Shown here piece after piece: positions 47,193-63,237 of a DNA stretch of 64,000 nucleotides; positions within the stretch are counted from its first letter, which is position 1, and each line of letters begins with the position of its first letter. The notes under the pieces are model-generated. The model was not told the DNA's origin. It made no database searches and saw only the letters and a list, made by a program, of their open reading frames with translations. Origin of the DNA: Kiritimatiellia bacterium (lineage in GTDB: Bacteria > Verrucomicrobiota > Kiritimatiellia > RFP12 > UBA1067); the NCBI GenBank assembly GCA_045536845.1, contig JAZSOG010000036.1:6899-70898 (forward strand), read 5' to 3'. A program made the position numbers and the translations under genes.

Positions 47193-47201
47193 TGATACAA
47201 T
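47193..47201 (+). promoter_or_regulatory. Extended -10 TGATACAAT driving the thiG riboswitch leader
   Basis: Read directly: tttTGATACAATatcc. Confidence 0.6.
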
Positions 47202-47294
47202 ATCCTTGTAACGGGGTGCTGCGTCGCACGGTGCGGCGTCGGCTGAGATCAGACCCGCGTACCTGAACCGGGTAATGCCGGCGGAGGAAGGATA
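47201..47294 (+). promoter_or_regulatory. TPP (THI-box) riboswitch upstream of thiG
   Basis: It is a near-paralog of the 40466 element: GGGGUGC ... GGCUGAGA ... ACCC ... ACCUGAACCGGGUAAUGCCGGCG. The P1 3' strand AAGGATA overlaps the GGAGGAAGGA ribosome-binding site. Confidence 0.9.
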
Positions 47295-47297
47295 AAA

Positions 47298-48062
47298 ATG
47301 AAGGACCTGGTTATCGGCGGCCGCAAGTTCAAGAGCCGCTTTTTTCTCGGAACGGGCAAGTTCGCATCGGGCGAAATGCTCAAACGCGCGCTTGCGGCGT
47401 GCGGAACTGAGCTCGTGACGACTGCGCTCACGCGCGTCCACGAAGGCGACGCGGAGCATGACGACATCTTGGGCGTAATCGACCGCTCGAAGGTCGAGGT
47501 GATGCTCAACACGTCCGGCGCGCGCAACGCGGCGGAGGCGGTGAGGATCGCGAAGCTCGGGAAGGCCGCGGGCTACAACTGGATCAAGATCGAGGTGCAT
47601 CCCGATGCGCGCTACCTGCTGCCCGACCCCGTCGAGACGCTGGAGGCCGTGAAGGAGTGCGCGAAGCTCGGGATGGTCGTGCTTCCGTACATCAACGCCG
47701 ACCCCGTGCTTGCGCGCCACTGCGAGGACGCGGGCGCGGCGGCGGTCATGCCGCTCGGAAGCCCCATCGGCTCGAACCGCGGAATCCGCACGCGCGACAT
47801 GATCGAGATCATCGTCGAGCAGAGCCACGTTCCGGTCGTCGTGGATGCGGGCATCGGACTTCCCTCCCACGCGGCCGAGGCCATCGAGCTCGGTGCTGAT
47901 GCCGTTCTCGCGAACACCGCCGTCGCAGCGGCGGACGATCCCGTCCAGATGGCGCGCGCGTTCGCACTCGCCGTGGAGGCCGCCGAAATCGGCATCAAGG
48001 CAGGTCCGCCCGCCGAGCGCTCCACCGCCAGCGCCACCAGCCCGATGGACATCTTCAAGTGA
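47298..48062 (+). CDS. thiG: Thiazole synthase
   Basis: ThiG motifs are GTGKF, IKIEV, LPDP, VMPLGSPIGS and DAGIG. Confidence 0.95.
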   Translation: MKDLVIGGRKFKSRFFLGTGKFASGEMLKRALAACGTELVTTALTRVHEGDAEHDDILGVIDRSKVEVMLNTSGARNAAEAVRIAKLGKAAGYNWIKIEVHPDARYLLPDPVETLEAVKECAKLGMVVLPYINADPVLARHCEDAGAAAVMPLGSPIGSNRGIRTRDMIEIIVEQSHVPVVVDAGIGLPSHAAEAIELGADAVLANTAVAAADDPVQMARAFALAVEAAEIGIKAGPPAERSTASATSPMDIFK

Positions 48063-48096
48063 CCATGCTGCCGACATATACGTCAAGGAGAAGACA

Positions 48097-48354
48097 ATGA
48101 CGACATACAACACGAAAGGAACGTGTTCGCGGGCGATCAACTACGAGGTCGCGGACGGCGTAGTGACGAAGTGCGAAATCGTCGGGGGATGCCCCGGCAA
48201 CACGCAGGGCGTCGCGAAGCTCGTAGTCGGACGAAAGGTCGAGGAGGTCATCGCGCTTCTGAAGGGCATCCAGTGCCGCAACGGCACCTCCTGCCCAGAC
48301 CAGTTGGCCCGAGCCCTGGAATCTGAAATCGCAGGCAAGGAGATAATTCCATGA
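48097..48354 (+). CDS. Small TSCPD-domain protein (TIGR03905-like)
   Basis: ORF 47845 trimmed to ATG 48097 (ribosome-binding site AAGGAG). It is 85 aa with GGCPGNTQG and TSCPDQL motifs. Confidence 0.6.
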   Translation: MTTYNTKGTCSRAINYEVADGVVTKCEIVGGCPGNTQGVAKLVVGRKVEEVIALLKGIQCRNGTSCPDQLARALESEIAGKEIIP

Positions 48355-48908
48355 AGAAGAACCTTGGAGTAAAGAACTGGATGTTCCCGATGCCCGTGCT
48401 GATGATCGGCACCTACGGCGTGGACGGCACGCCCGACGTGATGAACGCAGCGTGGGGCGGCATCACGCTCGAGGACGAGATCACGATCTGCATCGACACT
48501 TCGCACAAGACCTGGGCGAACATCGCCGCGCGAAAGGCGTTCACGGTAACCTTCGGAACAGCCGACGCGGTCAAGGCCTGCGACTACTTGGGGCTCGCGA
48601 GCGGCAACAAGACGCCGGACAAAGTGGCGAAGAGCGGCCTTACCGTCACGAAGAGCGAGTTCGTCGATGCGCCGATCGTCAATGAGCTGCCGCTCGTCCT
48701 CGAGTGCAGACTCGTTTCGATGAACGAGGAGAACTGCAATGTGGTGGGCAAGATTGTAAACTGCGCCGTCGAAGAGTCCGCCATGACGGATGGCAAGCCG
48801 GACGTGGGGAAGATGAAGCCCATCTGCTTTGACACCTGCCAGCACGTCTACCGTCTCATGGGCGCGTCCGTCGCCCCCGCTTTCTCCTGCGGCAAGGAAC
48901 TGATGTGA
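48351..48908 (+). CDS. Flavin reductase-like (FMN-binding split barrel) protein
   Basis: The length and pattern (PVLMIGTYG.DG.PDVMNAAW) are typical of Flavin_Reduct family proteins. Confidence 0.7.
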   Translation: MKKNLGVKNWMFPMPVLMIGTYGVDGTPDVMNAAWGGITLEDEITICIDTSHKTWANIAARKAFTVTFGTADAVKACDYLGLASGNKTPDKVAKSGLTVTKSEFVDAPIVNELPLVLECRLVSMNEENCNVVGKIVNCAVEESAMTDGKPDVGKMKPICFDTCQHVYRLMGASVAPAFSCGKELM

Positions 48909-48955
48909 TTCGCGGCGCAGCGAAGCATGGCAGAAATAGCCTAAAAAAGTATATA

Positions 48956-49654
48956 ATGTTTCCATTGAAGACTGCATCGTTCGGAATCGCCGTGCTCGTT
49001 CTGGCGCTGGCTGCGGGGTGCTGCAGCACCGCTGCGCGGGACGCTCGCGGCGGATTTGTCGCGCTAGCCGAGGCGGTGCCGGACGCGATTCTCGAGCCGC
49101 GGTACTATTCGACCTACAACTTCGTCGGCGAACGCATCGACGGATACGAAGAGCCGTGCGCGCTTTTGACGAAGGAGGCGGCGCGTGCGCTCAGGGCGGC
49201 GAGCGACGACTGCGTCAGGCGCGGCTACCGGTTGAAGATATACGACGCATACCGTCCGCAGCGGGCGGTCGCGCATTTCGTCCGCTGGGCGTCCGATCTC
49301 GGCGACACGCGGATGAAGCCGTATTTCTACCGCGACCTCGACAAGTCCGTGCTGTTCGAGCGCGGCTACATCGCAGGGAAGTCGGGGCACAGCCGCGGCA
49401 GCACAGTGGACCTTACGCTCTTCGACATGAAGATCGGCAAGGAAGTGGACATGGGCGGCACGTTCGACTGGTTCGGCCTCGAATCGCATCCCGACTACAA
49501 GGGCGTAACCAAGGAGCAGTACGCCAACCGCATGCTTCTCCGAGAGATCATGCTCGCCCACGGCTTCAAGCCGCTTTCGGAGGAATGGTGGCACTTCACG
49601 CTCGCGAACGAGCCCTATCCCGACACCTACTTCGACTTCCCGGTACGCGAGTGA
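48956..49654 (+). CDS. D-alanyl-D-alanine dipeptidase (VanX/DdpX, M15D) lipoprotein
   Basis: ORF 48905 trimmed to ATG 48956, which gives a lipobox signal (VLALAAGC). Motifs are YDAYRPQRA, SGHSRGSTVDLTL and WWHF. Confidence 0.8.
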   Translation: MFPLKTASFGIAVLVLALAAGCCSTAARDARGGFVALAEAVPDAILEPRYYSTYNFVGERIDGYEEPCALLTKEAARALRAASDDCVRRGYRLKIYDAYRPQRAVAHFVRWASDLGDTRMKPYFYRDLDKSVLFERGYIAGKSGHSRGSTVDLTLFDMKIGKEVDMGGTFDWFGLESHPDYKGVTKEQYANRMLLREIMLAHGFKPLSEEWWHFTLANEPYPDTYFDFPVRE

Positions 49655-49731
49655 ATACCTTTGCGGTGTCCAGTTCTGCTTCCGTTGCCAAGAACTTCAA
49701 GATGATTACCCTTGCATTGCGAAGGGAAATT

Positions 49732-49790
49732 TGGTTTAATGTGTCACATCTTCAAGGCATAAAGTTTGAAAGATGCAGTTTATGTCACAG
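49732..49790 (+). promoter_or_regulatory. hipBA promoter (TGGTTTAAT) with two TGT(G)-n-(C)ACA palindromic boxes
   Basis: Read directly: aatTTGGTTTAATGTGTCACAtc ... ttATGTCACAgg. The region is AT-rich compared with the flanks. Confidence 0.5.
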
Positions 49791-49802
49791 GAGTGAGACC
49801 TA

Positions 49803-50162
49803 ATGAATAGGATAGATGACATATCAGATGAAGCCCTGCTGAAGGAGGTTGGGCGCCGAATTGCGTATTTGCGCATTTCTGCGAAGATGAAGCAAGGAGA
49901 GCTGGCCGCGAAGGCCGGCCTGTCGCGCTATGCGCTTTCTCGCCTTGAGAACGGCGCAGGCGGCATTCGCCTCGATTCTTTTCTTTCGGTTCTTCGCTGC
50001 CTCAATGTCTTGAATAAGCTGTCGATCTTACTGCCGGAGCCAACTCCGACGCCGCTCCAGGTTGCGGAACAGGAAAAACATGCGATGAAAATGCCAAAGC
50101 GCGTACGGACTGTTCGTGCCAGGACAGAACGCACGTGGGGCGATGGGCAGCCTGCGCAATGA
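49803..50162 (+). CDS. hipB: XRE-family HTH antitoxin (HipB-like)
   Basis: It has the HTH KQGELAAKAGLSRYALSRLENG. It lies directly upstream of the hipA-like gene. Confidence 0.75.
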   Translation: MNRIDDISDEALLKEVGRRIAYLRISAKMKQGELAAKAGLSRYALSRLENGAGGIRLDSFLSVLRCLNVLNKLSILLPEPTPTPLQVAEQEKHAMKMPKRVRTVRARTERTWGDGQPAQ

Positions 50163-50177
50163 CGAAGAGGAATCGAG

Positions 50178-51476
50178 ATGCATAATACCGCGAATGTCTA
50201 TCTTTGGGGAACGCATGTGGGGACCGTGCTCCTTCAGGATGAAAGTCCGATTGCGAAATTCCAGTACGCCGACGCATTCCTCGACATGGGTGTGGAGGTG
50301 TCTCCGCTCAGGATGCCGCTTTCGTCGTCGGTGTTTGAATTCCCCGATCTGCCCATCAAGTCGTTTCACGGACTTCCCGGGCTCTTGTCGGACTCGCTGC
50401 CGGACAAGTTCGGCAACAAGGTGATTGCCGCATGGTTGCGAGAACAGGGGAAGCGTCCGGAAGACTTGAACGCCGTGGACAGGCTCTGCTATGCGGGTCG
50501 GCGCGGAATGGGTGCGCTTGAATACAAGCCGGCGCTTGTCGACAAGGAAGATGCAAGCGAACGGTTGACGGTTGATGCGCTTTCGGAACTCGCAGACAGG
50601 GTTCTCAAAGTGCGCGAAGACGCGAAGGCGTCGCTTGTTCCGGGCATCAGCGAATATGCCTCGATTCTCAAGGTCGGTTCTTCCGCCGGCGGCGCGCGTG
50701 CGAAGGCGCTCATCGGGTGGAACGAGGCGACGGGAGAGGTGAGGTCCGGACAGGTCGCGCTTCCCGAAGGATTCGGCTACTGGCTCATCAAGTTCGACGG
50801 GCTCACGGGAAACGGCGACAAGGAAGGCGACGACAAATGGGGCTACGGGCGCGTAGAATACGCCTACCATCTGATGGCCTGCGCGGCTGGAATCGAGATG
50901 ACCGAGTGTCGGCTCTGGAACAAGCGCCACTTCATGACGCGTCGTTTCGACAGACTTGCGGACGGCGGCAAGCTGCACGCGCAGACGCTCGGAGCTATTG
51001 CGCACTACGATTTCAACAATCCGGCGCTTTATTCCTACGAAGACGCCTTTGACGTCACCCGCCGCGTCGTGAACGATGCGCGCGCCAACGAGCAGCTATT
51101 TCGGCGCATGGCGTTCAACGTGCTGGCGTTGAACTGCGACGACCACGTGAAGAACATCGCGTATCTCATGGACCGGCGCGGCGAGTGGTCGCTCGCGCCT
51201 GCTTACGACGAGTGCTACGCGCACAATCCGGAAGGCGACTGGACCTCGCGCCACCAGATGTCCGTGAACGGAAAGCGCATCGGCATAACGGACGACGACA
51301 TCCTCTCCTGCGCGCGCTTCGCGAACATGCGCGAACGCAAGGCGCGCGCGGTTCTCGACGAAGTCAGGAGCGCGGTCCGAGACTGGCCGCGTTTCGCCGC
51401 CGAGGCGGAGGTCCGCGATGACTTCGTCGCGGCAATCTCGCTGCGGCTCAGCCAGCCGGGCGATTCCGGCGCATAG
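50178..51476 (+). CDS. hipA: HipA-family Ser/Thr kinase toxin
   Basis: It has the HipA N-terminal coupling domain (VYLWGTHVGTVL, LPGLLSDSLPDKFG). The kinase core motifs are GSSAGGARAKA, DDHVKNIAYLM and LAPAYD. Confidence 0.9.
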   Translation: MHNTANVYLWGTHVGTVLLQDESPIAKFQYADAFLDMGVEVSPLRMPLSSSVFEFPDLPIKSFHGLPGLLSDSLPDKFGNKVIAAWLREQGKRPEDLNAVDRLCYAGRRGMGALEYKPALVDKEDASERLTVDALSELADRVLKVREDAKASLVPGISEYASILKVGSSAGGARAKALIGWNEATGEVRSGQVALPEGFGYWLIKFDGLTGNGDKEGDDKWGYGRVEYAYHLMACAAGIEMTECRLWNKRHFMTRRFDRLADGGKLHAQTLGAIAHYDFNNPALYSYEDAFDVTRRVVNDARANEQLFRRMAFNVLALNCDDHVKNIAYLMDRRGEWSLAPAYDECYAHNPEGDWTSRHQMSVNGKRIGITDDDILSCARFANMRERKARAVLDEVRSAVRDWPRFAAEAEVRDDFVAAISLRLSQPGDSGA

Positions 51477-51507
51477 GCTTTGTCTGCACCCCCACCGCGC
51501 ATCCCAT

Positions 51508-51558
51508 AAAAATTACGCAACATTGCGTATCGCACTAATGCGTAATTTTTGATATAAT
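51508..51558 (+). promoter_or_regulatory. Perfect 12-bp inverted repeat (AAAAATTACGCA-19 nt-TGCGTAATTTTT) fused to the extended -10 TGATATAAT of the ATPase gene
   Basis: Read directly. The spacer holds a third half-site (TTGCGTAT). The 3' arm ends at the TG of the extended -10 (51550-51558). Confidence 0.7.
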
Positions 51559-51581
51559 GCCCAACGTAAGGAGGATACAGG

Positions 51582-52694
51582 ATGAAGATGCCATTCAGAT
51601 ACGGATGCGTTGTTGACGGGGAATACTTCTGCCCGCGTCCGGAATTGGAACGCCAATTACGCAGCTATGCGGAATCAGGTCAGAATCTTGTCATACAGGG
51701 AGAGCGCCGCATGGGCAAGACTTCTTTGGTCAAGAAGGCGATCTCGGGCATGAAAGGCGAGCGGCTTCTCTACGTAGACCTGTATGGCATCAGGACGTTG
51801 GCCGACTTTTGTCGGCGCGTGATGTCCGGCGTCGGAGGCGTAACGGAAAAGATGTCATTTCTGAAAAAGGCGCTTTCGCTTGCCCATCGGCTGCGTCCGG
51901 CCCTGACCATAGATTCAACGACCGGTGCGCCTACCATTACCGTGGATGCACGTGCAGCGTCGGAGCCGGATTCTCTTGGTGCCGTCATGGCAACCGTGAA
52001 GAAACTGGCCGAGGATGGTGGATTGTGCGTTGTCATGGACGAGTTTCAGGATTTGCTCAAGCTCGAGGATTCGGCGAAGATACTTGCGGAGATGCGCGGA
52101 ACGATCCAGTTTCAGGCGGATACGCCGTATTTCTATCTCGGGAGTTCCAGAAATGACATGCTTCGGATTTTCACGCATTATGACAGTCCGTTCTTCAAGT
52201 CCGCGCTGCCTTTCGAGGTGCCGCCGATTAACGAGGCGGCGTTCGTTCGGTTTATCGTTTCCCGATTTAGAAAGGGCGGATGTGAAATCGCCGCAGATGT
52301 CGCGCGATCCTTGATAAAGTTTGCGGACGGTGTTTCGGGCGACGTGCAGGAATTGTGCGACGCGCTGTGGAGCGTGACCAGTGAAGGCGCGTCGGTATCC
52401 GCAGACGATTTGCCGAAGGCATTGGCTGTCGTATTTGCAAGGGAGAAAAACGGTTTCGAGAATGCCATAGCCGACTTGACGCCCAACCAGCTGACCGTCC
52501 TCAGGGGGTTGGCGCAGATGGAATCCGCGCGCGTGTTCACGTCTGAGTTCATGGACAGCGTCCGCATTACAAGCCCCGGCGCCGTCAAGCGGGCGCTCAA
52601 TAGCCTTGTCGCGTCGCGCCTCATCTACCAAAACCGCACCGCGTACAAGTTCTCAAACCCATTCTTCAGGGAATGGCTGAAGGCTAATGCATGA
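51582..52694 (+). CDS. Orphan P-loop ATPase (archaeal-ATPase/STAND-like AAA) with C-terminal winged-helix-like region
   Basis: It has Walker A GERRMGKTS and Walker B CVVMDEFQ. The C-terminal region (LTPNQLTVLRGLA ... VKRALNSLVASRLI) looks like a wHTH. Confidence 0.75.
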   Translation: MKMPFRYGCVVDGEYFCPRPELERQLRSYAESGQNLVIQGERRMGKTSLVKKAISGMKGERLLYVDLYGIRTLADFCRRVMSGVGGVTEKMSFLKKALSLAHRLRPALTIDSTTGAPTITVDARAASEPDSLGAVMATVKKLAEDGGLCVVMDEFQDLLKLEDSAKILAEMRGTIQFQADTPYFYLGSSRNDMLRIFTHYDSPFFKSALPFEVPPINEAAFVRFIVSRFRKGGCEIAADVARSLIKFADGVSGDVQELCDALWSVTSEGASVSADDLPKALAVVFAREKNGFENAIADLTPNQLTVLRGLAQMESARVFTSEFMDSVRITSPGAVKRALNSLVASRLIYQNRTAYKFSNPFFREWLKANA

Positions 52695-52791
52695 GAGACA
52701 CGCAAGATAGAGCCTGGGCTGAAATTCTCGGTTTGCGCGTTGATGGCGAAAGAGGCCGCAGCTGCATTTTGATCGGCAGAAAGGTGAGCGC

Positions 52792-54354
52792 ATGGGCATT
52801 GATGTGAAAACACACGGCGACGACTTGTTTTCGGCTGCCGCATACGACGCCAGCCCGGCGCGGGCGCGCTCCGAGGCGCATGAGCGCGCGTCCGCGTTGA
52901 TCGCGGGGCGGACGCTCTCCGTCGGCAACGTCCTCGCGAGCGAGAATGCGCCGTTCTACGTGGCCATTCTTTCCGCTTTGGCCGACTTCCGCGCGGGACA
53001 CGAGTTCGAGCCGCTGTTCGAGGACGTGAGGGATGACGTTCTCGGCGAATCGCCGTCTCAGCGTCAGATCGACGAGTTCAACGCCGACCTCAAGCAGCTC
53101 GAGGACTGGAAGCTGGTCGAGCGGCGTATCGAGAAGATGCGCGTGAGGGGCTACCGCGACAACCGTCGCCGCAAGTTCCGCTTCCGCATCTGCGACGACG
53201 CGGCGTCGCTCGTGGAATGGCTACGCGCCCGCCGCGAGGAGGAGCTCAATCCGCGTGCCGTCGCCACGGACAACCTTCTCGGCTCGCTCAAGTCCGCGCT
53301 TGGAGAGATGCAGCGCACGCTGAGCCGCATGAAGGGCGGCGAGGTGGACGCGAACGCCGCGCGCGACGTGATGTACGGCATACAGCGCGCGGACGACCTG
53401 ACCGACGAGGTCGCGGCGAGCCTCCAGAAGCTCGACAAGCACCTCGACGACTTCACCCGCTCCGCCTACGACATCGGCGAGGCGCGCGAGGTCATCGATG
53501 AGCTGACGCTCTTCCGAGACCGGTTCATGAACCGCATCGGACGCCTCCGCCAGGAGATCGTCCCCGAGATCGACAAGCTGCGCACGCCGCGACAGCTTGA
53601 ACGCCTGGCCCGCTGCGAGGCCGTGTTCCGTGAGGAGTCGGGGAAGATGCGCCACATCGTGAGCGGACGCATCCCCGCGCCGCGCGATGTCCTCGACATG
53701 CTCATGCGCTTCTACGGTACGGACGGCAAGCTGCAGGAGCTGATGCGCCGCGTGTCGGATTCCGCGCGCAACGTCTGGAAGAAGCTGAGCGCCCGCCTCC
53801 GCGAACTGGAACGCCGCAACAGGCGGCTGGAGGACGTCGGGGCGCGGATCGCCGAATTCGCGCGGCTGCCGGAGGATGTCGTGCCGAGCGCATGGTTTCG
53901 CGTGCTTCTCCAGCCGGCGGCGATGTTCGGCGATATGCACATCCGCCCGGGCGTCAAGTCGCGCCCGCCTCAGCCGAATCTTGCCAAGAGCGGTGTCGCC
54001 GAGCGGACGAAGGCGTGGATTGACGAGCGGACGGACGCACCGGGCGCGCCGCGCGCGACATCCATGGACGAGGCTCGCCTCCGCGATCTGGAAGCCTGGC
54101 TCGTCGCGCGCGGGCTCAAGCCGGCGAACCACGGCGAGAGCGTCCGGCTGTCGTCCTGTCCAATGCAGGAGGACGGCGATTTCCGCAAGGTCATCGAGCT
54201 TGCGCGGAGCACGATACTCGGACGCGGCGCACGCGCGGCGCGGATCGGCGTGAAGGGGAGCGTTGTTGTCGGCAAAGAGGTAGCGCTCCATCTGGACGAG
54301 CGCCGCCTTGAATTCGAGGAACTTGAACTTTCGCAGACAGGAGAGATACGATGA
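52792..54354 (+). CDS. jetA: JetA-like (MksF/kleisin-like, DUF3375-type) subunit of a Wadjet-type operon
   Basis: A 520-aa helical protein, first gene of four tightly overlapping genes. Size and position fit JetA. The assignment rests on context, not on an HMM search. Confidence 0.65.
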   Translation: MGIDVKTHGDDLFSAAAYDASPARARSEAHERASALIAGRTLSVGNVLASENAPFYVAILSALADFRAGHEFEPLFEDVRDDVLGESPSQRQIDEFNADLKQLEDWKLVERRIEKMRVRGYRDNRRRKFRFRICDDAASLVEWLRARREEELNPRAVATDNLLGSLKSALGEMQRTLSRMKGGEVDANAARDVMYGIQRADDLTDEVAASLQKLDKHLDDFTRSAYDIGEAREVIDELTLFRDRFMNRIGRLRQEIVPEIDKLRTPRQLERLARCEAVFREESGKMRHIVSGRIPAPRDVLDMLMRFYGTDGKLQELMRRVSDSARNVWKKLSARLRELERRNRRLEDVGARIAEFARLPEDVVPSAWFRVLLQPAAMFGDMHIRPGVKSRPPQPNLAKSGVAERTKAWIDERTDAPGAPRATSMDEARLRDLEAWLVARGLKPANHGESVRLSSCPMQEDGDFRKVIELARSTILGRGARAARIGVKGSVVVGKEVALHLDERRLEFEELELSQTGEIR

Positions 54355-55034
54355 GTATGAAAGAATCGAAGCTTGAGGAAATCATGTCCGAAAGCGGACA
54401 GAGCGAACAGAAGGTGCAGAAGATTCTGAACATCCTTCTGGAGGCACCGTACTTCTACCGGGACGACGACCTGTCGCTCTTTCTCTTCCTCTCGAAATAC
54501 AAGCGGGCCTTCGCAGGATTCTTCAAGAAGTTCTACGGCTGGGAACTGATTGTCGAGTACAAGTGCGCGCGCCTCTACAAGCCGGCGTGGTACAACGAGA
54601 AGGTTACGGAAGTGAACCGCGACATGTTCAACTTTACGAAACGCGACGAGTGCGTGGCGTTTCTTCTTCTGCTGGAGTTCTTCGAGCGCGAGCTGCAGGA
54701 GCAGGCGGTCTCGACGGACGACAAGGAGAATCTCCGTTTCCTGTTCGGGTCGTTTCTCAATTTCGCGGGTGGCAGGTTCCGCGAGGTGTTTCCCGAGCGG
54801 ACGGACTACTACACCGACGAACAGGTGCGGCGGGTCGTCCGCGCCATTATGCCGACGCTCCTCAAGTACCGGTTCCTGCGCGAGCTGCCGCGTGGCGACG
54901 ACGACGGCGAAAGCGGCGACACGATCTATGAATGCCTCCCCGCCCTCTGGCTCTACAAGGGCGAGCGCCTAGCGTCCAGCGTGGCGACGGCACCTGAGGT
55001 TGATGTAACAAACAGGAACGTGGAGGGTGAGTAA
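54351..55034 (+). CDS. jetB: JetB-like (MksE-like, DUF4194-type) subunit
   Basis: It is 227 aa with an ATGA overlap with jetA. It is acidic, with the N-terminal LLEAPYFYRDDD pattern. Size and position fit JetB. Confidence 0.65.
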   Translation: MSMKESKLEEIMSESGQSEQKVQKILNILLEAPYFYRDDDLSLFLFLSKYKRAFAGFFKKFYGWELIVEYKCARLYKPAWYNEKVTEVNRDMFNFTKRDECVAFLLLLEFFERELQEQAVSTDDKENLRFLFGSFLNFAGGRFREVFPERTDYYTDEQVRRVVRAIMPTLLKYRFLRELPRGDDDGESGDTIYECLPALWLYKGERLASSVATAPEVDVTNRNVEGE

Positions 55035-58000
55035 AATGCCAATACGAAGAGATTCGTTCAGGATTACAAAGATTCGCTTCGTGAACTTCCACAATCTGGG
55101 AACGGGGATTGTGGACCTTCCGGGCGGAGGTCATTTGTTCCTGCTCGGCGACAATGGCTCCGGCAAGACAACCCTCCTTGACGCGATCCACTACGTGCTT
55201 TCCGCAGGCGACATTGAGTTCAACGCCGCCGCGCGCGTCGCAGGGGCGAAGAACGCAGGCGGACGCAAGGTGCAGGGCGTCGTGATGCGCTACAACGTCG
55301 AGGCGGGCGGCCCCATGAACAAGGACGGCGGCATTTCATACGCCGCCCTTGAACTGGCGTCGCTTGAAACTGGCCGGACGGTGTCGATTTGCGTGGGTCT
55401 TTCGGCGACTAGCATGGACGATCCCTACGACAGCTGGGGCGGCATGGCGGACGCTCCCGTTGCCGACCTGCCGCTGATGATCGAGGATTCGCACGACGGC
55501 AAGACGCAGTACCGTGCGGCCTTTCGCGACGAGTTCGCAAAGCGGCTGAAGGCGCTTCCCGCCGGGCGCTACTTCGCGAAGATCGGGCAGTACGCGACAG
55601 CCGTTGCGGAGCGTTTCTTCGACGATGTCGAAACCTACCGCAACGTCTGCCGCATTCTTGCGACCGGCAAGGCGTACCGCGAAATCGCGTCAAAGGCGGG
55701 AAACCTCAACCAGCTTTTCCGCCAGCTGCTCGAAGAGCCGAATCGCGAGACGTTCACCGGTCTTGTCGACGGGCTTAGATCCATCGACGAGAGCCGCGAA
55801 CGTCTCGACCGCATCGAGACGCGTCTTGGATTCCTCCGCAAGCTCAAGCGCGGACGCGATGCGCTCCTGCGGACGAAGGAGAGCCTCGTCTGCGCGGAAT
55901 GGAGACGAGCGGACATCGATTTCGCCGAGGCCGCTGCAAAGGAGCGCGAACTTGAGGAAGAGCGGACGAAAGTTGTTGCTGAAATCAATGTTGCCAACGG
56001 CGACCTTGACGTCCTCAAACGCGAACGCGACGCCCGGCAGACGGAACTTCAGGACCTGAAGGCGAAGGACGCTTCCGGTCTCCTTCAGCGCGAAAAGCAG
56101 CTCGCGCAGGAAGCCGCTGCGCTGGAAGGGGAGTGCCGCGCCAAGGATGATGCGCGGCGTAAGGCATCCGAAGCGTTGCAGGATGTGGCTGAGCGCGTTG
56201 CCGAATCGCGTCGCTCGCTTGCCGCGAGCGCTGCAAAACATGCCGTGGAGTTGCACAAACTCGGACAGGACGCGCCCGTTTCCGTCATGCCGCTCGTCTC
56301 CGCGCTTGATGCCGTCGCGAAAGCAGCCGTGCCGGAAGAGTCGGCGTTGGAAATGGACGCGGTACGCTCTGCGGTCGCGTCGGCCTGCGAAGACGCGGCT
56401 GGCGCGGTTCGTGCGTGTACGGACGAAGCCGCGAGGGCAGATGCGGAGGTGTTTCGGATTGGGAAGGAGCTCGCGGCACTTGAGGCGCAGGCGGAACCGG
56501 AGCCGGAAGTCTCCGGTTTCGCAGAGGCGCGGACGGTCGTGGCGGAGCGTCTCTTCAAGGCCGTGCCGCTCTATCTCCATGTCGAGCCGCGCGCCGGGTT
56601 GAAGTCTGCGGAAGTCGCCGCTTTTGAGCAGGTCGTTGGCGATGCGCTTCTCGGAACGTGGCTTGTGCCGCAGGACGAGGCGGACGCCGTGCGCATGGAG
56701 TTCTTCCGCAATCACCGTGAGCAGTCAATCTTCGTGCGGACGGAAGACTTCGACGTGCCATCCGAAACGGAATGGGTTGCGCGCTACATAGATGTTGCGG
56801 AATCGGCCCCCGATGCGGTACTGGCGCTCAAGGCGGCGCTGTCGGCACGCGGCGGACTGCGCGTCCTTGACGAGGTCGAGACGAAGGTGGTCGCGTTTCG
56901 CGGACGCGAGCAGCCGCTCGCCAACGTGAAACCGCGCCTTCTTGGAGCCAGACAGCGCCACGATGAACAGGCGCGGCGAATCCGCATGAAGCGCGACGAA
57001 CTCTCCGCCGCCGAGAAGTCGCGCGATGCGGCGGCGCGGCGTGTGCGCGAGGCGGAAGCGGCGCGTACGCACATGCGCGAAATCGCATCGGCCGTGGACG
57101 GTCTGCGGGCGTGGTGGCAGGAAGGACGCGAAAGGGTACGGCACCTCCGGCAGGAGCAGATGTTCCGCGAAGAGAACGCGGCAGGGGCGGCGATGGTTGC
57201 AGAAGAAGCGCGCAACAGGCTCGCGCGCGCGAAAGAGCAGCTTGAGTCTGTCCGCCTCAAGATGGCGAACGAAGGCGTAAGCGCGACGCTCGAAAGGCGT
57301 ATCAGGTCTGTCGAGAACCGAATCCGCGAGATCGAGGAAAAGATCTCGTTTGTGGATCGCGACATCGGAGCCAAAAGCCAGCGGGTCGTGAATGTCGACT
57401 CGGGGCTTGTCGCATCGCGGGAACGCCAGCGGATTGCGGAGGCGAGCCGTACCGTGGCGGAGAAACAGTTGCCCGGAATCGCCGCGCTTGCGCATGAACG
57501 CTTGGACACGGCGGGGGACACGAAGGAGTCGCTTGCGGCGTTTGTCGAGGAGTCGAAGCGCAAGGAGACGGAAGGCGAGACCACGCTGCGGCGCGACATC
57601 TGCGAGCCGATTGGATTCGACTATGCGTTCCAATTTGATGCGGCGGAGTGTTCGCTCGTCGATCAGCGCGGCGAGGCCATCGATGCGGTGCTGGAGAAGG
57701 AAAACGCGGACTACGAGGCGCAGAGGGGCGTCATCAACGAGCAGACGCAGCGCTTGTTCCGCGACATTTTCGTCTCCGAGGTCCTGCGCAAGCTCTACGA
57801 GGACGACCAGCGGCTCACGCAGCTTTCGGTGCGGGTGAACAGGATGCTGAAGGACCGGTTCTTCGGTTCGAGCCGGTATTCGTTCGGGTTGAAGCCCGTC
57901 CCCGAGTATGAATCGCTGCTGGCGCTCATCCGCAAGTTCAGCGCATACGGCGCGGGCGAGGACGGCGAGGAGATTTCCGATTTCGTGGAGACTCACAAGG

Positions 58001-58548
58001 ACGCGATCCTCTCCGCTCAGCCGGGCGAGATACCGGAGATGTTTGACTACCGCCACTGGTACGAATTCCAGCTGAAGATGGTGACGCGCGACAATGAGGG
58101 GAAGATCATCGATCGCTCCGTGAAAGCAGTCGGTTCCGGCGGCGAGCAGGCCGTACCGAACTATCTCCTGATCCTCACCGTCGCGGCGTTTCTCTACCAG
58201 GGGCGCACGGGCAACCAGTCGCTGCGGCTCCAGCCGCTCCTCTTCGACGAGGCGTTCTACGGGATCGACGCGGCGCGGCGGGACCAGCTCTTGTCCTTCG
58301 CGAACGATCTGGGGCTCCAGCTTTTCGTGGCGTCGCCGGACCAGGACGGCGTGAAGAAGGAGCTGCCGCGCACAACGTCGCTCTTCGTCGTCAAGGACGA
58401 GAAGTTCGATGTGCATCTCTACCACTACACGCAGGACATCACCGCCAAACAGGGCGACTTGTTCTCCTCGCCGGCACCGGACAGGCCGGATACGCCGGAA
58501 TTTACTTCGGTTGACGCTGACATCAAGGGAGCAGGCGATGAGTCTTGA
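55027..58548 (+). CDS. jetC: JetC-like SMC-family ATPase (MksB-like)
   Basis: It is 1173 aa. It has N-terminal Walker A LLGDNGSGKTTLLDAIHYVL, a long coiled-coil-like middle and a C-terminal SGGEQ signature plus Walker B LLFDEAFYGID. The start is GTG 55027 or ATG 55036. Confidence 0.85.
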   Translation: MSKMPIRRDSFRITKIRFVNFHNLGTGIVDLPGGGHLFLLGDNGSGKTTLLDAIHYVLSAGDIEFNAAARVAGAKNAGGRKVQGVVMRYNVEAGGPMNKDGGISYAALELASLETGRTVSICVGLSATSMDDPYDSWGGMADAPVADLPLMIEDSHDGKTQYRAAFRDEFAKRLKALPAGRYFAKIGQYATAVAERFFDDVETYRNVCRILATGKAYREIASKAGNLNQLFRQLLEEPNRETFTGLVDGLRSIDESRERLDRIETRLGFLRKLKRGRDALLRTKESLVCAEWRRADIDFAEAAAKERELEEERTKVVAEINVANGDLDVLKRERDARQTELQDLKAKDASGLLQREKQLAQEAAALEGECRAKDDARRKASEALQDVAERVAESRRSLAASAAKHAVELHKLGQDAPVSVMPLVSALDAVAKAAVPEESALEMDAVRSAVASACEDAAGAVRACTDEAARADAEVFRIGKELAALEAQAEPEPEVSGFAEARTVVAERLFKAVPLYLHVEPRAGLKSAEVAAFEQVVGDALLGTWLVPQDEADAVRMEFFRNHREQSIFVRTEDFDVPSETEWVARYIDVAESAPDAVLALKAALSARGGLRVLDEVETKVVAFRGREQPLANVKPRLLGARQRHDEQARRIRMKRDELSAAEKSRDAAARRVREAEAARTHMREIASAVDGLRAWWQEGRERVRHLRQEQMFREENAAGAAMVAEEARNRLARAKEQLESVRLKMANEGVSATLERRIRSVENRIREIEEKISFVDRDIGAKSQRVVNVDSGLVASRERQRIAEASRTVAEKQLPGIAALAHERLDTAGDTKESLAAFVEESKRKETEGETTLRRDICEPIGFDYAFQFDAAECSLVDQRGEAIDAVLEKENADYEAQRGVINEQTQRLFRDIFVSEVLRKLYEDDQRLTQLSVRVNRMLKDRFFGSSRYSFGLKPVPEYESLLALIRKFSAYGAGEDGEEISDFVETHKDAILSAQPGEIPEMFDYRHWYEFQLKMVTRDNEGKIIDRSVKAVGSGGEQAVPNYLLILTVAAFLYQGRTGNQSLRLQPLLFDEAFYGIDAARRDQLLSFANDLGLQLFVASPDQDGVKKELPRTTSLFVVKDEKFDVHLYHYTQDITAKQGDLFSSPAPDRPDTPEFTSVDADIKGAGDES

Positions 58549-59731
58549 CGCGGAACTGTGTGGTGACAAGCGCATCAAGGGGCTCGCGCGAAAGCTCGTG
58601 CGGCGAATCGATGGCGAGGGCCCATTGCCGTCCGAGATCGAAGTTCCGGCAACGCCTGAAGAATGGGAAGTCATCGCCGAAGTCGGGCGTATTCTTGGCG
58701 TCGCCGCCTATCAGAAGGGACGCAAGGCCGTGTTCCGCATCCAGCCTGAACGCCGCGATCCAGCCGGGTGGGAGAAAGTTTGCGCCGTTTTTGCAAAGAA
58801 GGAAGTGATAAGCGATTCTGGTGAGGAAGCTTTTCGCCGCGCTCGTTTGGTCGCCGGCGCCGATGTGGTCGAAACGTTGAAGTCAGACGCGACGGTCGTG
58901 CGTTTTCTGCGACGCGGCAAAGGGGCGGTTCACGATTTCGTGCGAATGCTCGAGTGGGCTGCTCGCCGCATTTCGAATGACGCAAATATGCCTCTGGTCA
59001 CGCTTTCTCAATTGGGTGCCGATATTCTCGGCGACAGCAAATCGCTGCGAACCGGAACGCGGCGCGTGGTGTTCGAGCGCGTCCTTTGTGCCGTTGCCGG
59101 AATGGATGCGGATGAATGCGGGCGTGAGGCGTCCGCTCGGTTCGGCATCGAAGAGAATCCTTTTACGAGCTTCGCGACCGTATTTGCGCCGCTCTCGTTC
59201 ACGCTCGACACGGGCGAATCGTTTGCGTATCCGGCGGAGATGTTCCGTCTGGGACTCGCCGTGCAGCTGCCGCGCCAGACGGTCATGCGCATCCGCAACG
59301 TGCGTTTGGACGTGCGTCAAATCGTCACAAGCGAGAACGCCGCGCCGGTTGAAACGCTTGTTCGTGAGAAGGTGCCGTGCCTCTACACGGAAGGCTATCC
59401 CAATGGCGCCGTCATCTGGCTGCTGGAGCTGTTCGCGGAGCAGGGGGTGACGGTGGATCATGCCGGAGACGGCGATCTTGACGGTTTCGTCATCGCAGAG
59501 CGGATTTCAAAGGCCATAACCGTCCGGCGCGTCATCGCCGAGGAACTCGCCGCGGACGAAGCGCTCCCGCGCCGCCCGGTCTCGCCACAGACGCACAGCC
59601 GTTGGGAAGCCTATCTCGCGGCGCATCCAGATTTCGCGCACGCTTCCGCGCTTCGCATCGCCATGGAGCGCGGCTGGATCGAGCAGGAAAGCATGGATAT
59701 GAACGTTTTGGCCGGGCGATCGGAAGACTGA
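58538..59731 (+). CDS. jetD: JetD-like Toprim-domain nuclease subunit (MksG-like, DUF3322/DUF2220-type)
   Basis: ORF 58409 trimmed to ATG 58538, which overlaps the jetC end by 11 nt. Its C-terminal Toprim-like motifs are VTSENAAP and HAGDGDLDGFVIAE. Confidence 0.75.
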   Translation: MSLDAELCGDKRIKGLARKLVRRIDGEGPLPSEIEVPATPEEWEVIAEVGRILGVAAYQKGRKAVFRIQPERRDPAGWEKVCAVFAKKEVISDSGEEAFRRARLVAGADVVETLKSDATVVRFLRRGKGAVHDFVRMLEWAARRISNDANMPLVTLSQLGADILGDSKSLRTGTRRVVFERVLCAVAGMDADECGREASARFGIEENPFTSFATVFAPLSFTLDTGESFAYPAEMFRLGLAVQLPRQTVMRIRNVRLDVRQIVTSENAAPVETLVREKVPCLYTEGYPNGAVIWLLELFAEQGVTVDHAGDGDLDGFVIAERISKAITVRRVIAEELAADEALPRRPVSPQTHSRWEAYLAAHPDFAHASALRIAMERGWIEQESMDMNVLAGRSED

Positions 59732-59738
59732 TAGAGAA

Positions 59739-59927
59739 ATGAGATTGAGGCGTTATGAAAAAGAAAATCGGCTCTTCGAGTACCTGATGTACGAGGTGCT
59801 GCAGTGCGGCCTTAGCTGGGACACGATCATCCAGAAGCGTACGGCGTTCCGCGTCGCCTTTGAGCGGTTCGACTTCGAGAAGATCGCACGCTACGGCGAC
59901 CGCGACATCGCGCGCATCCTCGCCGTG
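59739..59927 (+). pseudogene. tag: Remnant of DNA-3-methyladenine glycosylase I (tag), truncated at both ends
   Basis: NRLFEYLMYEVLQCGLSWDTIIQKRTAFRVAFERFDFEKIARYGDRDIARIL matches the central Tag block (LFE.L.LE..QAGLSW ... KR..FR.AF..FD). The Zn-binding N-terminus (C.W, YHD.EWG) and the C-terminal ~110 aa are missing. Confidence 0.6.
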
Positions 59928-59951
59928 CCCGCGCGCTGGAGGCGGAATAAA

Positions 59952-59960
59952 TGGTATAAT
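59952..59960 (+). promoter_or_regulatory. Extended -10 TGGTATAAT upstream of thiH (about 85-nt leader, no THI box)
   Basis: Read directly: aaaTGGTATAATactg. Confidence 0.6.
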
Positions 59961-60049
59961 ACTGACATCGGAAACAAAAGAAGAATGAACACAATGGAAT
60001 TCAACGGACCGAAGGAAGATTTGCTGTCCATTTGACGGGGATAATTGAA

Positions 60050-61162
60050 ATGTTTCCACTGCTGAAATACACGGCCGAGGAGGTCGATGAATACTATGCC
60101 AAGGTGACGCCGGAAATGGTGAGGGCCTCGCTTGCCAAGGACCGTCACGACTGGTTTGATTTGCTGAACCTCGTCTCGCCGGCGGCGTATCCGTTCATGG
60201 ACGAGATGCGCCGCAAGGCCCGTCTCGCGCGGATCAAGTACTACGGCAAGACGGTGAGCGTCTATGCGCCGCTCTATATCGGCAACACGTGCGTCAACCA
60301 CTGCCGCTACTGCGACTTCCGCCGCGAGCACACTGGCACCGTGAGGCGCAACCTGACGCTGGACGAGATACGCCTCGAGGCGGAGGCCATACGCGCGAGC
60401 GGAATCGACAACCTCCTCATCGTCGCAGGCGAGGACCCGAAGGTCAACTCGGTCGAGCACTTCTGCGACGTTGCGCGGCTCTTGAAGCCGATGTTCTCCA
60501 ACCTCTCGCTCGAAGTCGCGCCGCAGACCGAGGAAGGGTACAGGGCGATGTTCGAGGCGGGCTTCGAGTCGCTCACGTGCTTCCAGGAGACATACGACCA
60601 GGAACGCTACAAATACTTCCATCCGGCGGGACCTAAGTCCGACTACGAATGGCGGCTCTGGACGCAACTTCGCGCTGGACGCGCTGGCTTCCGCATTCTC
60701 GGCTGCGCGTTTCTTCTCGGGCTTACGCCGTGGCGCAGGGAAGCGGCGAGTCTCGCCGCGCACGCACTTTACTTGATGAAGGAGTGCTACGAGTCGAAGG
60801 TGCAGTTCGCGTTTCCGCGCTTTTGTCGCGTCGAGGGCGGTTTCGTGCCGCCGTGCGAAGTCGACGAGCGCGATGTCGATTTGATGATGCTCGCGTTCAG
60901 GATTTGCTTCCCGCAGTGCTGCATGACTGTCTCGACCAGGGAGGCGCCTAAGTTCCGCGACTACATCGTGCAGGTCGCGGCTGACAACATGAGCGCGGGT
61001 TCGCGCGTGACGCCAGGCGGCTATGCTGTTCTCGAAAAAGAGCACGCAGCAGACGTCGCGCAGTTCACGCTCACCGACAGGCGAGCGCCGAAGGAAATCT
61101 ACGACGCGATCAAGGCGAACGGACAGGAAGTCGTATTCAAGAACTGGGATAATAGAATTTAG
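60050..61162 (+). CDS. thiH: 2-iminoacetate synthase ThiH (radical SAM)
   Basis: It has the radical SAM cluster motif CVNHCRYCDF and ThiH/HydG-like length and context with the thi genes. The start is ATG 60050 or TTG 60032. Confidence 0.8.
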   Translation: MFPLLKYTAEEVDEYYAKVTPEMVRASLAKDRHDWFDLLNLVSPAAYPFMDEMRRKARLARIKYYGKTVSVYAPLYIGNTCVNHCRYCDFRREHTGTVRRNLTLDEIRLEAEAIRASGIDNLLIVAGEDPKVNSVEHFCDVARLLKPMFSNLSLEVAPQTEEGYRAMFEAGFESLTCFQETYDQERYKYFHPAGPKSDYEWRLWTQLRAGRAGFRILGCAFLLGLTPWRREAASLAAHALYLMKECYESKVQFAFPRFCRVEGGFVPPCEVDERDVDLMMLAFRICFPQCCMTVSTREAPKFRDYIVQVAADNMSAGSRVTPGGYAVLEKEHAADVAQFTLTDRRAPKEIYDAIKANGQEVVFKNWDNRI

Positions 61163-61257
61163 GGGTCAGTAGTCAGGGGTCAGGAGTTAGGAGTTGGAGT
61201 TCAGAGTTGGAGTTGGAGTTAGGGGTCAGGGGCCAGGAGTCAGGGGTCAGTAGTTAG
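61161..61257 (+). repeat. ~97-nt array of GGGGTCA/GGAGTCA/GGAGTTG heptamer-hexamer repeats between thiH and thiC
   Basis: Read directly: aggggtcagtagtcaggggtcaggagttaggagttggagttcagagttggagttggagttaggggtcaggggccaggagtcaggggtcagtagttag. Confidence 0.9.
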
Positions 61258-61283
61258 TAATTTAAATAAAGGAGACAATTAGT

Positions 61284-62588
61284 ATGACACAACTTGAGGC
61301 GGCGAGGAAGGGGATTGTGACCGACGCAATGCGAGAGGTCGCAAAGGGCGAAGGGCTTGATGCTGAGGCGGTTCGCGCGGCGGTTGCGACGGGCGAGGCG
61401 GTGATCCCGCTCAACCCCGCCCACAAAAACTGCCAGCCCGTCGGCGTCGGCAGGATGTTCACGACGAAGATCAACGCGAACCTCGGACGCAGCGTGACGC
61501 ATTCCGGAAAGGGCGACGAACTCGAGAAACTGCAGGTTGCGCTCGACGCAGGCGCGGACTTCGTGATGGACCTCTCCGTCGCGTCGACAGAGGACGAGAT
61601 CGCGTCTATCCGCCAGGGAATGCTCGACGCCTCGCCTAAGCCGCTTGGCACCGTGCCGATCTACGAGACGATCTCGCTTCTCGGCGACATCCCGAAGATG
61701 GACCCGAAGTTCCTTATCGGCGTAATTCGCCGCCAGGCCGAGCAGGGCGTCGACTTCATGACGCTCCACGCTGGGCTTCTCCTCAGGCACATCCCGAACG
61801 CGATGAAGCGCAAGATGGGAATCGTCTCCCGCGGCGGCGCGATCATGGCGGAGTGGATGATGGAGAACAAGGCGGAGAATCCGCTCTACACGCACTGGGA
61901 CGAAGTGATGGACATCCTCGCGGAGCACGACGTTACCGTTTCGCTCGGCGACGGCCTGAGGCCTGGTTGCCTTGCTGACGCCTCGGACGCCGCACAGTTT
62001 GGCGAGCTTGACGTTCTCGGCGAACTCGTCGACCGCTGCCGCGAGCGCGGCGTTCAGGTGATGGTGGAAGGTCCTGGCCACGTTCCCTTCAACCAGATTC
62101 AGATGAACATGGAACGCCAGCAGGAAGTCTGCAAGAAGGCGCCGTTCTATGTGCTTGGGCCAGTCGTCACCGACATCGCGCCCGGCTATGACCACATCGT
62201 TTCCGCAATTGGCGCGACAGCGGCCGCAACCTACGGCGCGTCGCTTCTCTGCTACGTGACGCCTGCCGAACACCTCGGGCTTCCCGACGCCGAGGAAGTG
62301 CACCAGGGCTGCATCGCCTACAAGATTGCCGCCCACGCCGGCGATGTCGCGCGCGGACTTCCGCATGCCCGCGAGCGCGACGATGCGATGTCCGATGCGC
62401 GCGCGGCGTTTGACTGGGACCGCCAGTTCGAGATTTGCCTCGACCCGAAACGGGCGAAGGAGCGTTGGCTCAAGACTCGCGCCTTCACCGACGAAGCGCA
62501 TGGCGACGACCACTGCTCGATGTGCGGCAAGCAGTTCTGCGCCGTCCGCACGTCGCGCCGCATCAAGAAACTCGCCGCGGAGCTTTGA
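61284..62588 (+). CDS. thiC: Phosphomethylpyrimidine synthase
   Basis: ThiC motifs are NANLG, TLHAG, GIVSRGG, GPGHVP and the C-terminal CSMCG.FC cluster. The AAAGGAG ribosome-binding site is present. Confidence 0.95.
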   Translation: MTQLEAARKGIVTDAMREVAKGEGLDAEAVRAAVATGEAVIPLNPAHKNCQPVGVGRMFTTKINANLGRSVTHSGKGDELEKLQVALDAGADFVMDLSVASTEDEIASIRQGMLDASPKPLGTVPIYETISLLGDIPKMDPKFLIGVIRRQAEQGVDFMTLHAGLLLRHIPNAMKRKMGIVSRGGAIMAEWMMENKAENPLYTHWDEVMDILAEHDVTVSLGDGLRPGCLADASDAAQFGELDVLGELVDRCRERGVQVMVEGPGHVPFNQIQMNMERQQEVCKKAPFYVLGPVVTDIAPGYDHIVSAIGATAAATYGASLLCYVTPAEHLGLPDAEEVHQGCIAYKIAAHAGDVARGLPHARERDDAMSDARAAFDWDRQFEICLDPKRAKERWLKTRAFTDEAHGDDHCSMCGKQFCAVRTSRRIKKLAAEL

Positions 62589-62613
62589 GAGACTACCAGC
62601 CCTGTCGGGAATT

Positions 62614-62622
62614 TGGTATAAT
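62614..62622 (+). promoter_or_regulatory. Extended -10 TGGTATAAT upstream of nifU
   Basis: Read directly: aatTTGGTATAATatt. Confidence 0.6.
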
Positions 62623-62664
62623 ATTTAGTTCAAGGACAGCAATCTTTACGAAAGTCGAACGGCG

Positions 62665-63237
62665 ATGTGGAATTATTCTGAGAAGATGATGGACCACTTC
62701 CGGAACCCCCGGAACGTGGGCAAGATCGAGAATCCCGACGGAACGGCGACAGTTGGGTCGCTTGCATGCGGAGACGCCCTCCAGTTCCAGTTCAAGCTCG
62801 GGCCCGACGGGAAGATCGCGGAGGCGAAGTTCCAGACATTCGGGTGCGCGAGCGCGATCGCAAGCTCGTCGGCGCTCACAGAGATGGTGATCGGAAAGAC
62901 GCTCGACGAGGCGAAGAAGATCACGAACCAGCAGATAGCCGACTACCTTGGCGGGCTCCCACCGCAGAAGATGCACTGCTCCGTGATGGGCCGCGAGGCG
63001 ATGGAGGCGGCGATAAAGAACTTCGAGACCGGCAAGAACACCGACCGCAACCTCGAGGACACGGTTCTCTGCACTTGCTACAACGTCTCCGAGAACGAGG
63101 TTCGCCGCGTGATAACCGAGAACCAGCTCACCACGGTAGAGGAAGTCACGAACTACACGAAGGCCGGCGGCGGCTGCGGGCGCTGCAAGGGCAAGATCCA
63201 GGCGATTCTCGACGAAATCCACGGAGGCGCAAAGTGA
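62665..63237 (+). CDS. nifU: NifU-type Fe-S cluster scaffold (IscU-like domain + BFD-like [2Fe-2S] domain)
   Basis: The IscU motifs are [23 protein letters not shown] and HCSV. The BFD-like region is C.C ... GGGCGRC. Confidence 0.85.

Follow-up and report, generated by a model that had tools for sequence, protein, structure and literature searches.

We analysed jetABCD, a four-gene operon in a 64,000-nucleotide stretch of the genome of a Kiritimatiellia bacterium (GCA_045536845.1, contig JAZSOG010000036.1, positions 6,899–70,898). This whole stretch is called the window, and coordinates are given within it unless another locus is named. Its sequence makes it probable that the operon encodes a complete, apparently functional Wadjet system (JetABCD) of a distinct lineage, centred on the Planctomycetes-Verrucomicrobia-Chlamydiae (PVC) bacteria and lying between the described Wadjet types. 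We judge with good confidence that in this lineage a type II-like kleisin of the DUF2397 family and a DUF2399-type nuclease occur together with two traits typical of type I, a single kleisin-interacting tandem winged-helix element (KITE) and a short JetC of ~1170 residues. A literature search found no paper describing the lineage, Wadjet in Kiritimatiellia or a type IV Wadjet.

Open reading frame (ORF) calling and reading of the sequence placed four tightly coupled ORFs at 52792–59731 on the same strand, as the original prediction had it. The overlaps it described at the jetA/jetB and jetC/jetD junctions, and the motifs it quoted from JetC and JetD, are present. The jetA/jetB junction is an ATGA overlap (54351–54354) with GGAGAG upstream, and the jetC stop codon (58546–58548) lies within an 11-nucleotide overlap with jetD (ATG 58538, with AAGGGAG upstream); the longest ORF for jetD starts at 58409 and would encode 440 residues. 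The jetB/jetC junction had been read as a further overlap, with jetC starting at 55027 ahead of the jetB stop codon (TAA, 55032–55034). A GTG does stand at 55027, but an overlap is unlikely: jetC probably starts at ATG 55036, leaving a gap of 1 nucleotide, because this ATG lies 8 nucleotides past GGAGGG and agrees better with the N-terminus of the family. JetC residues are nevertheless numbered here from the GTG. A scan for sigma-70 promoters and terminators gave results no better than those for shuffled sequence. The tight translational coupling, together with the intact ATPase and nuclease motifs described below, argues for a system that would be functional.

All four proteins gave family matches in Pfam, PADLOC and NCBIfam, which upholds the assignment to Wadjet made in the original prediction. 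JetC is predicted to be an ATPase of the structural maintenance of chromosomes (SMC) kind, with Walker A, ABC signature and Walker B motifs. It matched AAA_29 and SbcC_Walker_B in Pfam, JetC1 (PDLC00519, 1e-48) and JetC2 (7e-33) in PADLOC, and TIGR02680 in NCBIfam (76.4 bits, cutoff 462.85). The SMC layout proposed earlier is confirmed by these motifs and by the Ala/Glu/Arg-rich centre of the protein, the three residues together making up 42% of positions 241–900. From Walker A to the signature the distance is 996 residues in the window and 992–1014 residues in the family. A phmmer search of the PDB with JetC alone matched nothing. With the JetC family profile, the JetC of N. vireti (9qe0_A, 5.5e-17) was the sole Wadjet chain among the best 60 PDB matches, and no solved type I JetC chain was among those 60.

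JetD is predicted to be the nuclease subunit, with a Toprim fold and a putative E...DxD metal site. Its AlphaFold2 model (predicted local distance difference test, pLDDT, 90) matched the C. glutamicum MksG nuclease best in Foldseek (8b7f_A, E 7.9e-8), followed by topoisomerase VI-A (9o8p_A, 2zbk_A) and Spo11 (8uru_A), and thus bears out the Toprim fold earlier proposed for the C-terminus. The spacing from E266 to D311 is 45 residues and that from the DxD motif to the C-terminal WxEQE motif is 71 residues; the matching distances in MksG are 43 residues (E236 to D279) and 70 residues (D279 to E349/E351). By spacing, E266 corresponds to the MksG metal ligand E236, and E382/E384 are placed like E349/E351. 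In MksG, E236 and D279 are experimentally required metal ligands, and E349/E351 have been suggested to act as alternative nucleophiles. JetD shares its CAP-like and Toprim folds and its acidic metal-binding residues with topoisomerase VI-A and Spo11, but the window system encodes no ATPase B subunit of the topoisomerase VI kind, and the literature describes the JetD of type I systems as having no catalytic tyrosine in its 5Y-CAP domain. In the CAP-like half at the N-terminus, the conserved motif LSQLGADILGDSKSLR may serve in DNA contact or in docking onto JetABC.

Among sequence families, JetD passed the Pfam cutoff for DUF2399 (35.9 bits, cutoff 23.4) and fell below that for JetD_C (DUF2220; 20.2 bits, cutoff 22), and the window protein matched neither DUF3322 nor DUF3323 of Pfam. 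The PADLOC matches were JetD2 (4.6e-14) and JetD1 (5.7e-10), and the only NCBIfam match returned was TIGR02679 (34.9 bits, cutoff 196). DUF2399 was matched by all 38 members of the JetD family, JetD_C by 23 and DUF3323 by three.

JetA would be the kleisin-like subunit, as suggested by a DUF2397 match above the Pfam cutoff (46.2 bits, cutoff 28.5, residues 48–351) and by its position beside the KITE gene. Its best PADLOC model was JetA2 (2.6e-7), with no match to JetA1, and its sole NCBIfam match was TIGR02677 (33.7 bits, cutoff 165.85). Of the 22 JetA family members, 21 matched DUF2397 and none matched another JetA family; neither DUF3375 nor PF18982 gave a match at E≤0.01 in the window JetA or in any of the 22. 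Aligned with hhalign, the JetA family matched the JetA of type II along the entire length at 75% probability, and non-type-II JetA at 2.7%.

JetB is best described as a KITE of the JetB/MukE kind with two winged-helix domains (WHDs), a description supported by its AlphaFold2 model (pLDDT 79). The top Foldseek match of the model was a single lobe of the type II JetB from N. vireti (9qe0_D, 193 of 384 residues), then E. coli JetB (8as8_C), with further matches to MukE (3rpu_G, 9gmb_E) and P. aeruginosa JetB. The DUF2398 match (30.5 bits) covered profile positions 2–86 of 363 only, corresponding to the N-terminal WHD, and DUF4194 was not matched at E≤0.01. PADLOC returned JetB2 (3.4e-8) and JetB1 (1.5e-6), and TIGR02678 scored 27 bits against a cutoff of 125. 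In the JetB family (n=33), DUF2398 was matched by every member, DUF4194 by 27 (weakly, best 9.5e-7) and MksE by 19; one relative is named "DUF2398 family protein" by NCBI. Homologues from a protein search were all single-lobe and 207–242 residues long, two truncated fragments aside. A profile search run exhaustively against 1.84 billion representatives gave 108 matches, the full-length ones 198–298 residues and mostly 207–242 residues, and neither search returned a tandem KITE among the JetB homologues. The canonical tandem DUF2398 proteins P0427 and P0428 (274 and 239 bits to DUF2398) were reached by the JetB profile only at E ~1e-4, and hhalign placed the window JetB on lobe 1 of P0427 (88.5% probability). 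Separately, the profile reached a more distant group of single-lobe KITEs (P0388, P0392, P0404, P0417; 253–266 residues, E 1e-13 to 1e-7) that carry an LLEGLFFYKRD motif and have weak or no Pfam matches (MksE, DUF2398). This group may mark another uncharacterised SMC-KITE system.

When 185,579 species genomes were scanned with JetA, 161 matches were confirmed; 79 loci (L001–L079) were fetched. Kiritimatiellia, Lentisphaerae and Verrucomicrobia of rumen and gut account for most of the matching loci, with metagenome-assembled genomes (MAGs) of Akkermansia among the last group, and a few loci are from Desulfobulbus or deltaproteobacteria; among those fetched, L077 comes from Pontiella sulfatireligans F21, a type strain in culture. 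The closest loci, 98–99% identical to the window, come from rumen Kiritimatiellia MAGs (L001, L002), which agrees with the PVC-like setting read from the sequence at the outset. All four jet genes stand together in 47–48 of the 79 loci, and jetA-jetB-jetC-jetD is inherited as one unit, as had been expected for related genomes. Where all four ORFs are complete (36 loci), JetA has 490–554, JetB 210–233, JetC 1142–1177 and JetD 382–414 residues. The ATPase residues of JetC and the Toprim residues of JetD are invariant across 25–38 homologues that are only 23–40% identical, so the motifs are more than a chance occurrence. In most sources the proteins are called hypothetical.

The gene orders are cyclic permutations of one another: 31 loci read A-B-C-D (a further one is probably an artefact of ORF calling), 14 read B-C-D-A and two read D-A-B-C. 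In most permuted loci (for example L011, L040 and L053, compared with the window) the jetD stop codon overlaps the jetA start. At least two MAGs, UBA1211 (L008, L039) and SIG88 (L010, L024), each hold a pair of divergent family copies on separate contigs; in UBA1211 the order is B-C-D-A in one copy and A-B-C in the second. Some loci carry 1.7–2.7 kb of extra genes between jetC and jetD (L015 15747–17294, L028 6080–8513, and also L021, L027 and L032). By eye, the L028 insert holds a 449-residue AAA ATPase, a 222-residue protein with a GIY-YIG/T5orf172-like N-terminus and a 124-residue ORF, and the L015 insert a DUF1016/YhcG-like ORF and a 297-residue nuclease-like ORF.

The classification of Doron et al. 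from 2018 is said to assign to type I a JetA of DUF3375, a JetB of DUF4194 and a JetD of DUF3322 plus DUF2220, and to type II proteins of DUF2397, DUF2398 and DUF3323 plus DUF2399. The N. vireti type II system has a tandem KITE of four WHDs (388 residues) and a JetC of 1371 residues with a channel-less hinge, and the coiled coil of JetC measures ~410 Å in type II versus ~295 Å in type I (bioRxiv 10.1101/2025.03.10.642339). According to this work, the only structural study of the type, most or all KITEs of type II may be tandem fusions (bioRxiv 10.1101/2025.03.10.642339).

We compared the family with exemplars from annotated plasmid Wadjet operons, 9–10 per subunit. Four were of type II (TIGR02677-80; B. 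mycoides, Alicyclobacillus and two Streptomyces) and 5–6 were not (Erythrobacter, Cohnella, Variovorax, Rossellomorea, Agathobacter and Vibrio). The non-type-II exemplars have PF18982 JetA (apart from the Variovorax JetA, which had no Pfam match) and DUF4194 JetB, with JetD_C in the three JetD proteins scanned (alone in L081 and L085, together with DUF3322 in L083). We label them type I/III-like, a label under which the split between type I and type III is uncertain. In one of them, on a plasmid of Vibrio nigripulchritudo (L086 3073–7795; PF18982 JetA, DUF4194 JetB), jetC is interrupted by an IS3 transposase insertion. JetB has 400–491 residues in the type II exemplars and 202–250 in the type I/III-like ones, in which JetC has 1111–1228 residues. 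Between Walker A and the signature, three type II exemplars have 1195–1223 residues (in the fourth, these motifs could not be located) and the non-type-II exemplars 969–1043 residues.

Scores between the family and type II, between the family and the non-type-II exemplars, and between those two groups were, in that order, 30, 44–47 and 4 for JetC and 8, 9 and 0–1 for JetD (phmmer, median bits). With hhalign they were 48, 28 and 27 for JetA, 45, 43 and 23 for JetB, 325, 399 and 245 for JetC, and 80, 158 and 50 for JetD, the JetC alignments to the exemplars being full length at 99.9–100% probability. Neighbour-joining (NJ) trees were built on a score-based distance, Kimura distances being undefined at such divergence. 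For all four subunits, the family, type II and the non-type-II exemplars formed three separate clans (189–200 of 200 bootstraps). By these measures the family is nested in neither known group, and its distance to each is smaller than the distance between the two: the kleisin tends towards type II, the SMC and nuclease subunits tend towards types I/III, and the KITE is equidistant.

The type I call of the original prediction, under which the operon would be a canonical type I Wadjet with JetA of DUF3375, JetB of DUF4194 and JetD of DUF3322 plus DUF2220, is very improbable. JetB (227 residues) and JetC (1173 residues) have type I-like sizes, JetC1 is the best PADLOC match of JetC, and DUF4194 is weakly matched across much of the JetB family, but the family assignments of JetA and JetD did not hold for the window proteins. 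JetA matches only DUF2397 and JetA2 and lacks DUF3375, PF18982 and PADLOC JetA1, the window JetB passes DUF2398 alone and only in its N-terminal part, and JetD passes DUF2399 with JetD_C below cutoff and DUF3322 absent; NCBIfam returned TIGR02677 and TIGR02679 as the only matches of JetA and JetD. With the type I/III-like systems (E. coli GF4-3, P. aeruginosa PA14 JetABCD, C. glutamicum MksBEFG and the exemplars L081, L083, L085 and L087) the window system shares subunit sizes, a single KITE and the overall MksG fold of JetD, and its JetC and JetD profiles score highest against this group. The family nevertheless forms a clan apart from the non-type-II exemplars, its JetA has no detectable similarity to PF18982 JetA or to DUF3375, and the solved type I chains are unmatched by the JetA, JetB and JetD profiles. 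A merely divergent type II Wadjet (TIGR02677-02680, like EptABCD of M. smegmatis), in which the differences would have no classificatory weight, is unlikely, though less so than type I. The gathering cutoffs of DUF2397, DUF2398 and DUF2399 are all exceeded, type II models are the best PADLOC matches of JetA, JetB and JetD, and one relative bears a DUF2398 name; the gene order A-B-C-D is shared with type II, and both the sole PDB Wadjet match of the JetC profile and the best structural match of JetB are from the N. vireti system (nvJET-II, PDB 9QE0/9QE1). Set against these, JetB is a single lobe of two WHDs (227 residues, with no tandem family member) where the type II KITE is a tandem of 388–491 residues, JetC (1170–1173 residues) is ~200 residues shorter than type II JetC (~1370–1400 residues) and of type I length, and the DUF3323 of the type II JetD N-terminus occurs in three of 38 family members only. 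The TIGR02677/02678/02679/02680 scores of 34/27/35/76 bits lie 4- to 6-fold under the cutoffs of 166/125/196/463, JetC and JetD lie nearer to the exemplars outside type II, and the family is a clan of its own.

We also weighed a chromosome-organising condensin of the MksBEF kind, associated with a nuclease and serving maintenance of the host genome in place of defence, and find it hardly credible. Wadjet, MksBEF and MukBEF are homologous according to the literature and share the SMC-kleisin-KITE architecture, the JetB model resembles MukE and many JetB relatives resemble Pfam MksE; all copies found are chromosomal, a search of viral contigs and plasmids having returned no copy of the JetABCD family of the window. 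Against a housekeeping role, the operon includes a coupled gene for a dedicated Toprim nuclease, JetD, with intact catalytic residues, and the genes are accessory and variable, not core. Their distribution is patchy (the 161 matches given above), at least two MAGs hold two copies, different variants occupy one chromosomal slot, gene order is permuted, some loci have inserted genes, and hipBA is a neighbour. The patchiness, double copies, shared slot, permuted order, inserted genes and hipBA neighbour are typical of accessory defence genes.

Several points weigh against placing the operon in a Wadjet lineage of its own between the types. The exemplars are few and all plasmid-borne, none of them has a DUF3375-type JetA, and NJ trees are fragile at 14–19% identity. 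Signals from models of known Wadjet proteins are weak for JetA, JetB and JetD (27–51 bits), with every NCBIfam score far below cutoff, and PDB sequence and profile searches with these three subunits matched no solved Wadjet chain. The kleisin fold of JetA and the assembly of the complex are predictions from sequence.

If the operon does encode a Wadjet of this distinct lineage, the stoichiometry of its complex, its extrusion of loops, its preference for circular DNA and its action against plasmids would be those inferred from the type I and type II systems, and a type II-like mechanism of extrusion and cleavage would be expected. JetA, JetB (presumably as a KITE homodimer) and JetC would form a dimer of SMC motors that load onto DNA and extrude loops using ATP. 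On small circular DNA, extrusion would run to completion and the motors would stall, holding a bent DNA segment. A JetD dimer would then be recruited or activated and would cut the DNA at its metal-dependent Toprim site (E266, D311/D313 and possibly E382/E384), so that plasmids would be destroyed and the large chromosome spared.

Table 1. Features of the window discussed in the text; positions are within the window, and JetC residues count from GTG 55027.
Feature	Position	Strand	Remarks
jetA, kleisin-like subunit (predicted)	52792..54354	+	520 aa, DUF2397 family
jetB, single-lobe KITE, two WHDs (predicted)	54351..55034	+	227 aa
jetC, SMC-like ATPase (predicted)	55027..58548	+	1173 aa from GTG 55027; likelier 1170 aa from ATG 55036
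JetC Walker A GDNGSGKT, aa 41-48	55147..55170	+	invariant except Ser45, 25 sequences
JetC ABC signature SGGEQ, aa 1037-1041	58135..58149	+	invariant, 25 sequences
JetC Walker B and D-loop LLFDEAFYGID, aa 1071-1081	58237..58269	+	FDEAFYGID invariant, 25 sequences
jetD, CAP-like and Toprim nuclease subunit (predicted)	58538..59731	+	397 aa
JetD motif in N-terminal CAP-like half, LSQLGADILGDSKSLR	59003..59050	+	S157, D166, S167, K168, L170, R171 invariant
JetD Toprim glutamate motif TSENAAP, aa 264-270 (E266)	59327..59347	+	E266 invariant, 38 sequences
JetD DxD motif HAGDGDLDG, aa 308-316 (D311, D313)	59459..59485	+	D311/D313 invariant, 38 sequences
JetD C-terminal WxEQE (E382, E384)	59675..59689	+	invariant, 38 sequences
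Thiamine cluster	47298..62588		interrupted by the accessory stretch
Accessory stretch	48351..60031		flavin reductase, dipeptidase, hipBA, ATPase, jetABCD and truncated tag genes
hipB/hipA pair	49803..51476		HipA_C 9.6e-44
Inverted repeat	51508..51550		20 nt, 85% complementary, 3-nt spacer
AAA/STAND-like ATPase gene	51582..52694		370 aa, C-terminal winged helix; weak PADLOC PDC-S27 match, 1.3e-7
Truncated tag gene	59739..60035		Adenine_glyco positions 22-100 of 177
7-nt tandem repeats	61145..61276		thiH-thiC intergenic; GGGGTCA / GGAGTTA units

The operon lies in an accessory stretch that comprises genes for a flavin reductase and a VanX-like dipeptidase, hipBA, an ATPase gene, jetABCD and a truncated tag gene, and that interrupts a thiamine cluster, with thiG and TSCPD upstream and thiH and thiC downstream (Table 1). 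At another locus (L040 4553–15518), thiH and thiC, 96% and 94% identical to those of the window, stand beside a B-C-D-A variant whose JetA is 42% identical. At a third (L027 1463–11440), the flavin reductase (92%) and dipeptidase genes are followed directly by another B-C-D-A variant; across these two loci JetA is 41–42% identical to that of the window. This suggests that the slot in the thiamine cluster is a defence hotspot in which Wadjet variants are exchanged. An Rfam scan of 45000–64000 found no family at gathering score, the thiamine pyrophosphate (TPP) riboswitch included, and the intergenic region between thiH and thiC holds short tandem repeats.

The original prediction had pointed to the setting beside hipBA and an ATPase. 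Both adjoin the operon just upstream, as it noted; as candidate Wadjet components they were rejected, since they accompany the operon only in the two 98–99% identical loci. Between hipA and the ATPase gene is an inverted repeat, AAAAATTACGCAACATTGCG / CGCACTAATGCGTAATTTTT, that could be an operator or a terminator. Directly after jetD lies a fragment of tag (DNA-3-methyladenine glycosylase). Tag fragments of 73–88% identity also adjoin other Wadjet loci (L002 12066–12245, L016 10704–10874, L023 762–983), and L003 has two (1886–2026 and 9255–9425). Repeated insertions at a single target gene may have left the fragment behind as a remnant.

No SMC motor employed in immunity is better understood than Wadjet, and the differences between its types bear on how SMC complexes evolved and how they work. 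The family would stand as an intermediate in this evolution, and comparing it with type II would bear on the roles of KITE fusion and of the length of the coiled coil. More tentatively, and with slightly less than even confidence, we suggest that it represents a fourth Wadjet lineage that has kept the state before KITE fusion, pairing a type II-like kleisin with a homodimeric single KITE and a short SMC, and that links type II to types I and III, the tandem KITE and extended coiled coil of type II being later inventions. If so, it would provide a natural system for learning what KITE fusion and coiled-coil extension changed in loop extrusion. Because the proteins score far under the NCBIfam cutoffs and are mostly labelled hypothetical, Wadjet may be undercounted in censuses of defence systems in PVC bacteria from rumen and gut.

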